Origin: Escherichia coli
GTDB taxonomy: Bacteria > Pseudomonadota > Gammaproteobacteria > Enterobacterales > Enterobacteriaceae
Reading direction: 5' to 3' (one strand)
Assembly (NCBI RefSeq): GCF_003334255.1
Contig: NZ_QOWU01000119.1
DNA: 3,540 nt
Shown: piece after piece, positions 1 to 3,540 of the stretch
Position numbering within the stretch: position 1 is the stretch's first letter
Layout: each line of letters opens with the position of its first letter
Program-made: the position numbers and the translations under genes
Notes under the pieces: model-generated
The model's input: the letters and a program-made list of their open reading frames with translations, nothing else
Told to the model about the DNA's origin: nothing
Databases searched by the model: none

Positions 1-243
1 CATAAACCGGTGCAGTACTATCCCGGGAAACATCCGTGCGAAAAACCGGCAGAAATGCTGCAGCAGATAATCAGCGCGAGCAGTCGTCCGGGTGACCTGG
101 TTGCAGATTTCTTCATGGGGTCAGGTTCGACAGTCAAAGCAGCGATAGCGCTGGGACGTCGTGCAACTGGCGTTGAGCTGGAGACTGAGCGTTTTGAGCA
201 GACGGTCAGGGAAGTTCAGAATTTAGTCAGTCAGAACGGATGA
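1..243 (+). CDS. DNA methyltransferase (N6-adenine/N4-cytosine type), C-terminal fragment; 5' end lies upstream of the window
   Basis: Frame 1 is open from base 1 to the TGA at 241-243. The translation ...HPCEKPAEMLQQIISASSRPGDLVADFFMGSGSTVKAA... carries the HPxxKP motif followed by the FxGxG AdoMet-binding motif (D-x-F-M-G-S-G-S-T) typical of this methylase family. The ORF-track start at 10 is an internal GTG, not the true start. Confidence 0.8.
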   Translation, partial: HKPVQYYPGKHPCEKPAEMLQQIISASSRPGDLVADFFMGSGSTVKAAIALGRRATGVELETERFEQTVREVQNLVSQNG

Positions 244-245
244 TA

Positions 246-274
246 TTGCAGAATTAGTTACGTACCGTTATTAT
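246..274 (+). promoter_or_regulatory. Candidate sigma70 promoter for the tRNA pair
   Basis: TTGCAG at 246-251 (3/6 to TTGACA), 17-bp spacer, TATTAT at 269-274 (5/6 to TATAAT). The predicted start (about 281) is just upstream of the first tRNA at 284. Pattern match only. Confidence 0.3.
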
Positions 275-283
275 CCTATGCCC

Positions 284-359
284 GGCCCTTTAGCTCAGTG
301 GTGAGAGCGAGCGACTCATAATCGCCAGGTCGCTGGTTCAAATCCAGCAAGGGCCACCA
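284..359 (+). tRNA. ileZ: tRNA with anticodon CAU, tRNA-Ile2 (lysidine, AUA-decoding) type; 76 nt with encoded CCA
   Basis: Manual cloverleaf: acceptor GGCCCTT (284-290) pairs with AAGGGCC (349-355), discriminator A356, CCA 357-359. D-arm GCTC/GAGC; anticodon loop CTCATAA with CAT at 317-319; T-loop TTCAAAT. The sequence is close to E. coli ileX as I remember it. The symbol ileZ is by analogy with Stx-phage tRNAs and is tentative; from the anticodon alone an elongator tRNA-Met cannot be excluded. Confidence 0.8.
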
Positions 360-368
360 TATCACATA

Positions 369-445
369 CCGCCATTAGCTCATCGGGATAGAGCGCCAGC
401 CTTCGAAGCTGGCTGCGCGGGGTTCGAGTCCTCGATGGCGGTCCA
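369..445 (+). tRNA. tRNA-Arg, anticodon UCG; 77 nt with encoded CCA
   Basis: Manual cloverleaf: acceptor CCGCCAT (369-375) pairs with ATGGCGG (435-441), discriminator T442, CCA 443-445. U8 present; D-arm GCTC/GAGC with ATCGGGATA loop; anticodon stem CCAGC/GCTGG; loop CTTCGAA with TCG at 403-405; 5-nt variable loop; T-stem CGGGG/CCTCG (one G-U); T-loop TTCGAGT. Confidence 0.75.
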
Positions 446-501
446 TTATCTGCATTATGCGTTGTTGGTTCTGATGAGTGAATCATTGTCTTTTGAGCAA
501 C

Positions 502-523
502 AGGCTATCATATAAGATAGCCT
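502..523. repeat. Perfect 8-bp inverted repeat (hairpin) in the tRNA-to-ORF spacer
   Basis: AGGCTATC (502-509), 6-nt loop atataa, GATAGCCT (516-523). It is not followed by a T-run, so it is not a canonical terminator; it could be an RNA processing structure or a protein-binding site. Confidence 0.5.
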
Positions 524-1175: not shown

Positions 1176-1328
1176 TCCTGATGATTTTGGGGCGCTGGAA
1201 AGATATTGTGCTGTGAAGTGTTAAATTCCTCACAATTCAGTAAGTTGACAGTTGCCTGTCAGACTGGGCATTTGTTAAAAAAATTTCGCATGGTGAATCC
1301 CCCTGAGCGGAGGGGCGACTGGTGACGG

Positions 1329-1334
1329 TATAAT
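1329..1334 (+). promoter_or_regulatory. Consensus -10 hexamer TATAAT without a convincing -35
   Basis: TATAAT at 1329-1334. No good TTGACA-like hexamer lies 16-18 bp upstream (AGCGGA at 17 bp). The consensus TTGACA at 1245-1250 is too far away to pair with it and has no good -10 of its own. Confidence 0.25.
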
Positions 1335-1340
1335 CTCTGA

Positions 1341-1462
1341 TTATCAAAACGAGAATGACGCGGGTTTAGTGGCACCGGGCTGAACTCACCGGGAGGCACC
1401 CGGCACCATGTTCATGGTGATACAGAAATGCGGCTTCAGCCCCTCTCCGGAGGGGCTTTCTT
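1341..1462 (+). ncRNA. Hypothetical small structured RNA of about 120 nt, running from the candidate -10 to the intrinsic terminator
   Basis: There is no credible ORF in this interval. Consecutive hairpins: CCGGG-aggca-CCCGG (1389-1403), perfect palindrome CACCATG-tt-CATGGTG (1404-1419), and the terminator hairpin at 1438-1457 followed by a T-rich tract. Purely structural inference. Confidence 0.25.
1438..1462 (+). terminator. Rho-independent terminator, + strand
   Basis: AGCCCCTC (1438-1445), loop TCCG, GAGGGGCT (1450-1457): an 8-bp GC-rich stem followed by TTCTTAT. Confidence 0.6.
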
Positions 1463-1468
1463 ATGGAC

Positions 1469-1689: not shown

Positions 1690-3540
1690 ATGACATTTAA
1701 ACACTACGATGTGGTCAGGGCGGCGTCGCCGTCAGACCTTGCGGAGCGACTGACACAAAAACTGAAGGAGGGGTGGCAGCCATTTGGCAGCCCTGTGGCC
1801 ATCACGCCTTATACCCTGATGCAGGCCATTGCGGCGGAAGGTGATGTCACCACACCGGTGGTGGTGCAACCGTCGGGTGATGGTGGCGCTGTTATCAGCA
1901 CCACCAGCGAACCGGAATATTACTTTGTCATTGCGCTGGCCGGGCAGTCCAACTCGATGTCTTTTGGCGAGGGGCTGCCGCTGCCGGAGACATATGACCG
2001 TCCGGACCCGCGTATTAAACAGCTGGCGCGTCGCAGTACGGTGACGCCGGGTGGTGCCGCCTGTAAATATAACGACATCATTCCGGCAGACCACTGTCTG
2101 CATGATGTGCAGGATATGAGTAACCTGAATCATCCTCATGCAGACCTGAGTAAGGGACAGTACGGTTGTGTGGGGCATGCTCTGCATGTTGCCAAAAAGC
2201 TGCTGCCGTTTATGCCTGCGAATGCGGGTATCCTTCTTGTTCCATGTGGCCGTGGCGATTCGGGATTTACTGCGGGGGCCGAGGGGGCGTTTAACGAAGC
2301 GTCGGGAGCGACCGCAGGCTCGTCCCTGTGGGGGGCGGATAAACCGCTGTATCATGACCTGGTCAGCAGAACCCGTGCGGCCCTGAAGAAAAATCCGAAG
2401 AACGTGCTGTTATCAGTGATCTGGATGCAGGGAGAAAAAGATGTCAGTTCGGGGAGACATGCAGAACACAATGCGCTTTTCCTTGCCATGGTAAATCAGT
2501 TCCGTACGGAACTGGCAGATGTGGCAGAGCAGTGTACTGGCGGGACAACGGCCAGCGTCCCGTGGATTTGCGGTGATACCACGTACTACTGGAAGGAAAG
2601 GTATGCAGCGCCGTATGAGGCGGTTTACGGTGGGTATAAAGGCAAAGCTGCGCAGAATATTCACTTTGTGCCGTTGATGACGGATGAGCATGGTGTGAAT
2701 GTGCCGACAAACGAGCCGTCAGAAGATCCGGACATTATCCCGGCGGGATACTATGGCGCTGCGTCACGCACTGCCAGTAACTGGACGTCAGCCGATCGTA
2801 AAACGCACTTCAGTTCATGGGCGCGAAGAGGCCTTGTTTCAGACCGCCTGGCAGGTGCCATTTTGCAGTACGCCGGGCGGACATTATCGTTCCTTACCGG
2901 GCAGAGCGCACCGCAGTCGGGTGGTACAACTCCCGGTGATGATGTCAGTCCGGGGGTACCGGGTGTTGAGAAACCGCAGGATGGCGGTGTTGCTGGTACT
3001 GGTCATGATGAGGCCGTGAGCAGTACCAGGACGGTGGCTGAATATGATGCGAACAGTGGAAATGGTGTATGGACAGAGCAGCAGTGGGGGGCTGCCGGTG
3101 GCAAAGGCACTGTGACTGATGACGGTGGACGGAAAGCGCTACGACTGGAAAAACAGCCCGGTAAACTGACGTCCTGGAAAATGTTCCGTACTGTTGCAGT
3201 GGAGGAGGCAAAAAATCTTCTCAGCAAGGGGGGTGAAATTGCCGTACGGTTCAAAATTCCGGATGGAAGCGAACTGGTGAACGGACAGTTTGTCTTTGGT
3301 CTCTACTGGCCGGTGTCGCAGTGGGCGTCAGGCGCGGCAGCAAACAGTATGCTGGCATCATTCTTCCTTCAGACGGATGCATCAAATCTGAATCTTATGC
3401 ACCACAAGGGCACGTCGAATGCACAACTGGGTACATTTGGTGCGTTTGACCATAACTGGCATACGGTTGTTTTCCGCTTTGCGGGAAATAACAGCGAAAG
3501 AGTCGTTCCGGTGATTGATGGTACAGAGCAGACGGCGTTT
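1690..3540 (+). CDS. nanS-p: Prophage-type sialate (9-O-acetyl-N-acetylneuraminate) O-acetylesterase, NanS-p family; 5' partial, continues past the window end
   Basis: ATG at 1690 with a strong SD. I translated all 617 codons to the window end with no stop. The N-terminus MTFKHYDVVRAASPSDLAERLTQKLKEGWQPFG... matches the DUF1737-type N-terminal domain. It is followed by the SGNH/SASA esterase block YYFVIALAGQSNSMSFGEGLPLPETYDRPDPRIKQLAR with the catalytic GQSN serine motif, as in E. coli NanS (YjhS) and the Stx-phage paralogues. A Gly/Pro/Thr-rich linker (about 2890-3010) and a further C-terminal domain follow. Confidence 0.9.
   Translation, partial: MTFKHYDVVRAASPSDLAERLTQKLKEGWQPFGSPVAITPYTLMQAIAAEGDVTTPVVVQPSGDGGAVISTTSEPEYYFVIALAGQSNSMSFGEGLPLPETYDRPDPRIKQLARRSTVTPGGAACKYNDIIPADHCLHDVQDMSNLNHPHADLSKGQYGCVGHALHVAKKLLPFMPANAGILLVPCGRGDSGFTAGAEGAFNEASGATAGSSLWGADKPLYHDLVSRTRAALKKNPKNVLLSVIWMQGEKDVSSGRHAEHNALFLAMVNQFRTELADVAEQCTGGTTASVPWICGDTTYYWKERYAAPYEAVYGGYKGKAAQNIHFVPLMTDEHGVNVPTNEPSEDPDIIPAGYYGAASRTASNWTSADRKTHFSSWARRGLVSDRLAGAILQYAGRTLSFLTGQSAPQSGGTTPGDDVSPGVPGVEKPQDGGVAGTGHDEAVSSTRTVAEYDANSGNGVWTEQQWGAAGGKGTVTDDGGRKALRLEKQPGKLTSWKMFRTVAVEEAKNLLSKGGEIAVRFKIPDGSELVNGQFVFGLYWPVSQWASGAAANSMLASFFLQTDASNLNLMHHKGTSNAQLGTFGAFDHNWHTVVFRFAGNNSERVVPVIDGTEQTAF

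Follow-up and report, generated by a model that had tools for sequence, protein, structure and literature searches.

The closest described relative of the gene discussed here is argN, a tRNA gene of the ileZ-argN-argO cluster of Shiga toxin 2 (Stx2) phages of the 933W/VT2-Sakai type. The cluster was reportedly first described with the 933W genome by Plunkett et al. in 1999 (J Bacteriol), and its explanation by rare codons is said to date from the first Stx2 phage genomes. The name argN is given in several phage records, including AP012535 and AP012537, and the annotated order in AP012537.1 is DNA methylase, ileZ, argN, argO, stx2A and stx2B. As gene names, ileZ and argN were found in no relevant paper of the full-text literature that was searched; they are taken from GenBank annotations. 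In all sampled phage and prophage copies with intact trios, ARAGORN assigns the anticodon UCG to argN and UCU to argO. Here we analyze a stretch of 3,540 nucleotides from Escherichia coli (assembly GCF_003334255.1, contig NZ_QOWU01000119.1; hereafter the window), in which positions 369–445 of the plus strand hold a 77-nt gene for a tRNA-Arg with a UCG anticodon. Judged by identity and gene order, this is argN of Stx-type lambdoid prophages, a gene that is already known and named and that occurs very commonly; it probably encodes a codon-supplementing tRNA-Arg(UCG) of the ileZ-argN-argO cassette.

The tRNA genes were called with ARAGORN and with Infernal, using the covariance models of Rfam. 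ARAGORN returned a tRNA-Arg (anticodon tcg), and the Rfam model RF00005 matched positions 369–442 with 55.1 bits (gathering score 29, E = 2.2e-10) over its full length (model positions 1–71 of 71). In the alignment to this model the anticodon loop reads CUUCGAA, which places U34, C35 and G36 at positions 403–405 of the window. Read directly from the sequence, the acceptor stem CCGCCAU/AUGGCGG ends in a C1-G72 pair, with a discriminator U73 and an encoded CCA (443–445). The locus thus holds a class I tRNA gene that is intact and has UCG as its anticodon. An earlier note, made from the letters of the window alone, had described it as a tRNA-Arg with this anticodon and a C1-G72 end, and ARAGORN, RF00005 and direct reading all bear out that description. 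The same note had considered that another anticodon, a pseudogene score or an offset anticodon loop might emerge on closer inspection; ARAGORN and Infernal returned the same anticodon, a score above pseudogene level and an unshifted loop. The minimum-free-energy fold is a cloverleaf as well, with an energy z-score against shuffled sequences (−1.11) that is not significant alone. Support for the structure was therefore taken from the covariance model and from natural variants, and the fold energy was not counted as evidence.

For the variants, 11 distinct members of the same scaffold were aligned, a small and related sample with 77.6–100% identity to argN by BLAST. On the cloverleaf, 97% of the cells in this alignment form standard pairs, compared with 29–53% in controls in which the 3′ partner was slid. 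Together with the full-length match to RF00005, this agrees with the clean cloverleaf that the earlier note had reported. In four pairs (standard numbering: 7-66, 27-43, 30-40 and 52-62) both partners are changed, which suggests that compensatory changes maintain the cloverleaf; this is supportive rather than a formal test. The UCG anticodon is kept in 8 of 8 sampled variants at 89.6–100% identity.

Over its 77 nt the gene is 100% identical to tRNA-Arg genes of Escherichia phage vB_EcoP_phi345 and of the Stx2a phage Stx2_14040. The comparison with argN and argO of Stx phages, which the earlier note had suggested, identifies it as argN, since it shares 98.7% identity with the annotated argN of AP012535.1/NC_049923.1 and 96.1% with that of AP012537.1. 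The copy in VT2-Sakai and those in many other Stx2a phages are also 98.7% identical; the window differs from VT2-Sakai by one nucleotide in the D loop (position 20a, U in the window vs C). Matches were found in 262 phage records, 12 at ≥99% and 214 at 95–99% identity, nearly all of them Stx-converting or related Escherichia phages and most of them Stx2 phages. Of 5426 complete E. coli genomes, 2185 (~40%) match the 77-nt gene at E ≤ 1e-5; the median is 2 argN-related places per genome and the maximum is 8. The best place per record reaches ≥99% identity in 174 cases and 95–99% in 780.

The surroundings of the gene are those of a prophage. Twenty complete E. coli genomes match the window across ≥80% of its extent, the best being a prophage of E. 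coli G1/2 (97.7% identity). In this lambdoid prophage, which is annotated by PGAP and adjoins an ompW remnant, the order is RusA, antitermination protein, a small ORF, DNA methyltransferase, tRNA-Ile, tRNA-Arg, 'TolA' and a SASA-family esterase, continuing with DUF1378, DUF826, holin, lysozyme, lysis protein and terminase. The order in VT2-Sakai is Q, tRNA-Ile, tRNA-Arg, tRNA-Arg, stx2A, stx2B and esterase, and in the Stx2a phage WGPS2 a DNA methylase also lies upstream of ileZ-argN-argO. By these comparisons the window is a late-region segment of a lambdoid prophage, the same as in Stx2 phages but toxin-free. Likewise from gene order, the ileZ-argN-argO cassette is located between Q or DNA methylase and the cargo, esterase and lysis genes, in carriers that include non-Stx lambdoid prophages. 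The supply of the tRNA by a phage, as the earlier note had proposed, is thus confirmed by both the identity of the 77 nt to phage genes and the nature of the neighbors.

We compared argN with the arginine tRNAs of E. coli K-12. The earlier note had named no UCG isoacceptor for this strain and had remarked on the C at position 1 in place of the usual G. Both statements are correct: the annotation of NC_000913 lists argQ, argZ, argY and argV (ACG, read as ICG), argX (CCG), argU (UCU) and argW (CCU), and no arginine tRNA with UCG, and all of these host genes have G1-C72, with A73 or G73 as the discriminator. It shares with them the class I type, a length of 77 nt, the arrangement of the D loop with its A20, the C35 of the anticodon, a variable loop of 5 nt and a CCA end that is encoded in the gene. 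It differs in its C1-G72 pair, its U73 and its UCG anticodon, and its identity to host tRNA-Arg is 58–73%, argU being the nearest (73%). The major determinants of E. coli arginyl-tRNA synthetase (ArgRS) are A20 and C35, and U or G at position 36 counts as a further determinant. The D loop of argN, AUCGGGAUA, matches AGCUGGAUA of argQ and argX column by column, which assigns A20, and this A is invariant in the alignment. The arginine identity positions C35 and G36 are present in the anticodon.

In E. coli, CGA is decoded solely by tRNA-Arg(ICG), by way of inosine wobble, and CGG by tRNA-Arg(CCG), which is scarce. We determined codon use from annotated genes, taking the intact genes of a related prophage (L001), those of VT2-Sakai and a sample of 42 K-12 core genes. 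CGA and CGG together make up 23.4% of the arginine codons in L001 and 27.0% in VT2-Sakai, vs 11.4% in K-12 (Fisher p = 1e-6 and 2e-16, respectively), so that the cognate codons of argN are commoner in phage than in host genes, by a factor that we report as 2.4–2.9-fold. AGA and AGG account for 26.0% (L001), 24.0% (VT2-Sakai) and 3.5% (K-12) of the arginine codons, and AUA for 20, 18 and 4% of the isoleucine codons, with 18–23% across prophage genes. As the tRNAs of the cassette match the host-rare codon sets that the phages over-use, codon supplementation is the best supported function. We propose that host ArgRS charges argN, which would read CGA by direct pairing and CGG by wobble and so would help to translate prophage genes rich in host-rare codons; likewise, ileZ would serve AUA, and argO would serve AGA and AGG. 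A change of CGA/CGG decoding in the lysogen, as put forward in the earlier note, is reasonable on these grounds and would fit both the codon enrichment and the promoter-like block described below.

This block, a putative sigma-70 promoter of the tRNA pair, directly follows the stop codon of the methylase gene (241–243) and ends 9 nt before the first tRNA. An alignment of 10 loci shows that TTGCA and TATTAT are invariant, that the similarity among the loci starts right at the block, and that beyond it, on the upstream side, the loci divide between two unrelated settings, methylase or Q. Because the hexamer cores are conserved across these unrelated contexts, the alignment suggests that the tRNA cassette travels between prophages with a promoter of its own. 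A consensus promoter scan of the window did not call the block at 246–274, which matches 8 of 12 consensus positions. The conserved promoter would allow expression of ileZ-argN in the lysogen. On induction, the pair would also be transcribed by Q-dependent late read-through: a terminator-like site lies just after Q in the related prophage (L001 6693–6708), with an equivalent in VT2-Sakai, and as the cassette lies downstream of both Q and this site, it should join Q-antiterminated late transcription. With a 9-nt spacer between them, ileZ and argN would be transcribed as one dicistronic precursor and then processed. A terminator scan found no terminator-like site in the window between argN and the TolA-like ORF that follows it.

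The third gene of the cassette is present only as a relic. The 13-nt spacer after argN (446–458) is identical to that of VT2-Sakai, and the argO sequence behind it, from a tRNA-Arg(UCU) gene, is without the T arm and the 3′ acceptor strand. Membership of the window in the cassette in its intact form is affected by the lack of an intact argO after argN; the identity of argN is not. The terminator-like hairpin that follows argO in VT2-Sakai (L002 4180–4199) has no counterpart in the window. A third intact tRNA between 446 and 730 was considered and rejected, as neither ARAGORN nor Rfam at E ≤ 10 gave a call.

The scaffold of argN, with C1(U1)-G72 and U73, also occurs with other anticodons. It carries UCU in E. 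coli Nissle 1917 (L003 3001–3077) and M15 (L005 3000–3076), and UUU, annotated as tRNA-Lys, in E. coli SMS-3-5 (L004 3001–3077). These members are 87–90% identical to each other and 79–86% to the UCG copy in the window, but the UUU member shares just 61% identity with host lysT. All three share the acceptor end (C1(U1)-G72, U73, CCA) and the T arm with argN, and in M15 and SMS-3-5 they follow ileZ in the slot that argN has in the window, downstream of the same promoter block. They differ from argN in their anticodons and, for UUU, in the predicted amino acid too, and in the sister cassettes Thr(UGU) and Gly(UCC) come next in place of argO, giving Ile(CAU)-Lys(UUU)-Thr(UGU)-Gly(UCC) at L004 2924–3233 and Ile(CAU)-Arg(UCU)-Thr(UGU)-Gly(UCC) at L005 2923–3232. 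From these few sequences, a single prophage tRNA chassis seems to have undergone shifts of the anticodon, including a switch of identity from Arg to Lys. P2-OLD and AriB of PARIS deplete the isoacceptors Thr(UGU) and Lys(UUU) (PMC12445682), and the L004 and L005 cassettes may for this reason be counter-defence sets. One could extend this to a mobile tRNA chassis with its own promoter, repeatedly re-anticodoned, in which the cassettes Ile-Arg-Arg, Ile-Lys-Thr-Gly and Ile-Arg-Thr-Gly are tuned to the tRNA-targeting defences of the local E. coli population rather than to codon usage and argN is a replacement tRNA-Arg; we consider this extension doubtful.

When a single genome of each species was searched with the scaffold's 3′ half, three matches were obtained, two with degenerate anticodon arms and one in a metagenome-assembled contig with an intact trio. 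The distribution suggests that the scaffold is essentially confined to enterobacterial prophages, with no broader family. A search of IMG/VR for the anticodon arm with a free anticodon gave 0 exact matches, with a pattern that was probably too strict. The two degenerate copies, in Edwardsiella hoshinae (L006 1096–1172, minus strand) and Salmonella enterica subsp. diarizonae (L007 220–293, plus strand), were given two-base 'anticodons' by ARAGORN; the former has a 6-nt anticodon loop, the latter is 74 nt long, and the acceptor and T arms are intact in both. They are probably pseudogenes in prophage remnants.

Several observations weigh against codon supplementation by a fully active argN. The Rfam score of argN is below that of the neighboring tRNA (72.5 bits). 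A purine at position 73 is a minor identity element of ArgRS, and argN and all its scaffold relatives have U73; because the host tRNAs have A73 or G73, charging of argN by ArgRS may be less efficient. The variants in 118UI and B1172 (L017 and L018, both 1501–1577) keep UCG with two stem mismatches, A6/A67 in the acceptor stem and A52/C62 in the T stem, and with G58 in the T loop (standard numbering), and these copies may be inactive or decaying. The enrichment of CGA and CGG is modest and much weaker than that of AGA and AGG, and no significant excess of CGA/CGG is present in the window's own three genes (6 of 38 arginine codons). In addition, argO, the reader of AGA/AGG, has decayed in this lineage although these are the most over-used codons (13 of 38 arginine codons in the window genes). 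The loss of argO despite this over-use, the several copies held by many genomes, the lack of enrichment in the window genes and the modest CGA/CGG enrichment together suggest that the cassette is under weak or redundant selection for codon supplementation. The searchable literature yielded no data on the expression, aminoacylation or decoding of argN.

A different role that would account for the unusual scaffold is counter-defence. A nuclease-insensitive tRNA-Arg, with C1-G72, U73 and an anticodon arm of its own, could sustain translation when tRNases of the host or of competitors, such as colicin D or systems of the OLD and PARIS types, deplete cellular tRNA-Arg. Nuclease-insensitive phage tRNAs are a published general hypothesis (PMC10264068), and a phage tRNA-Thr(UGU) rescues P2-OLD toxicity in E. 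coli (PMC12445682). The distance of argN from every host tRNA-Arg and the Lys(UUU) and Thr(UGU) genes of the sister cassettes, targets of AriB and P2-OLD behind the same promoter block, point the same way. We nevertheless regard this role as unlikely for argN, which no evidence ties to any nuclease and whose UCG anticodon would be a poor substitute for tRNA-Arg(ICG) on the abundant CGU and CGC codons unless U34 reads all four. Moreover, argN has A37, CAG at 28–30 and CUG at 40–42, and A37 with paired CNG motifs at these positions are features of tRNAs cleaved by P2-OLD (PMC12445682); resistance of argN to P2-OLD was rejected for this reason. Rather unlikely, too, is that the intact gene is a nearly neutral passenger, which rides the recombining Q-to-lysis module with little effect on fitness and decays in some lineages. 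The decay of argO in the same locus, the mismatched variants of 118UI and B1172 and the broken anticodon arms in Edwardsiella and Salmonella would suit such a passenger, as would the fact that the closest full-length relatives of the window lie in a prophage with many frameshifted genes, where sequencing errors are possible. The retention of UCG in all eight sampled variants, the compensatory stem changes, the invariant hexamer cores of the promoter and the match between the codon sets of the cassettes and the codon bias of the prophages favor a maintained function instead.

The acceptor end raises the question of whether argN accepts arginine. A C1-G72 pair is a hallmark of E. coli tRNA-Pro and was otherwise found only in proM among the tRNAs compared, and its U73 is unlike the A73 or G73 found in host arginine tRNAs, so that charging with another amino acid, or no charging, might lead to recoding or stalling at CGA and CGG. 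This appears very improbable, as the major ArgRS determinants A20, C35 and G36 are all in place. Prolyl-tRNA synthetase (ProRS) depends on G35/G36 and A73, and the G35 and A73 that it needs are replaced by C35 and U73 in argN. In addition, the gene is conserved in hundreds of phages that use CGA and CGG as arginine codons. Compensation by the phage copy for a host tRNA gene destroyed by integration, a tRNA-dependent lysogeny as it exists in mycobacteriophages (PMC10865867), is hardly credible here and was rejected: there is no chromosomal UCG gene to destroy, and the related prophage L001 adjoins a truncated ompW gene, not a tRNA-Arg gene. Furthermore, argN is located among the late genes, at a great distance from the attachment site. 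Codon supplementation by an arginine-accepting argN thus remains the explanation that we favor.

Features of the 3,540-nt window around argN, with the evidence for each assignment.
Feature	Positions	Strand	Evidence and remarks
DNA methyltransferase gene, 3′ end (runs off the left edge)	1..243	+	ORF 10–243, stop 241–243; PGAP 'DNA-methyltransferase' in G1/2
Putative sigma-70 promoter of the tRNA pair	246..274	+	−35 TTGCAG 246–251, 17-nt spacer, −10 TATTAT 269–274; from conservation
ileZ-type tRNA-Ile2, CAU anticodon, encoded CCA	284..359	+	ARAGORN 'Met (cat)'; Rfam 72.5 bits; PGAP tRNA-Ile; ileZ of AP012537.1
argN, tRNA-Arg(UCG)	369..445	+	ARAGORN, RF00005, variants, near-identity to phage argN; anticodon 403–405, C1-G72, U73, A20, CCA 443–445
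argN-argO spacer (446–458) and decayed 5′ half of argO (459 to ~505)	446..505	+	Aligned with VT2-Sakai and with the intact trio of a metagenome-assembled contig
TolA C-terminal-like ORF, 142 aa	724..1152	+	TIGR02794, 75.9 bits over residues 47–141; phrog_5772, E = 1.4e-57
STnc100-family RNA element	1259..1468	+	RF02076, 165.6 bits, E = 1.3e-38; terminator-like hairpin 1438–1457
SASA-family carbohydrate esterase (yjhS/nanS-p type), N-terminal 617 codons (runs off the right edge)	1690..3540	+	phrog_143, E = 1.5e-289; PGAP

The tRNA upstream of argN (284–359) we take to be a reader of AUA after lysidine modification. Downstream, the TolA-like ORF fills the exact cargo slot of stx2AB in Stx2 phages, and it is also found behind the different tRNA cassette of E. 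coli M15 (L005 4271–4699). The N-terminus of its product is hydrophobic and closes with ...LTTGC, which may be a lipoprotein signal, and phrog_5772 is a family of unknown function; as a speculation, a TolA domain III in free form might disturb the entry of colicins or phages that depend on Tol. An STnc100 element is also present between stx2B and the esterase gene in VT2-Sakai (L002 5573–5778, 207.7 bits), and a match to AsxR (an anti-sRNA) lies antisense just downstream of the element in VT2-Sakai and L001. In the window, a convergent terminator-like site is located at 1496–1475 on the minus strand. The esterase is named yjhS 9-O-acetyl-N-acetylneuraminic acid deacetylase in Stx2 phage records.

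As a discovery argN amounts to little, being annotated in hundreds of phage and E. coli records. The ileZ-argN pair is a landmark of the cargo slot of lambdoid prophages in which the stx genes sit, and the window presents a toxin-free version of this slot. Two points of interest remain: how well E. coli ArgRS charges a tRNA-Arg with C1-G72 and a pyrimidine discriminator, and whether prophage tRNAs, carried by ~40% of E. coli genomes, affect the decoding of rare arginine codons in lysogens or protect from tRNA-cleaving defences.

Compared with the argN of Stx2 phages of the 933W/VT2-Sakai type, the window copy shows 98.7–100% identity over 77 nt and the same anticodon. The two loci have in common ileZ upstream with a 9-nt spacer, the promoter-like block, a methylase or Q gene further upstream and an esterase gene downstream. 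The prophage of the window differs from the Stx2 phages in that it has no stx genes and a TolA-like ORF instead, retains argO as a relic and is missing the terminator after argO. The tRNAs of virulent coliphages (T4, T5 and relatives) are likewise phage-borne and serve codons that are poorly served by the host, and the same two competing hypotheses of function apply to them and to argN (PMC10264068, PMC12445682). Unlike T4 and T5, the carrier of argN is a temperate lambdoid prophage, in which two or three tRNAs are placed in the late operon beside cargo genes.

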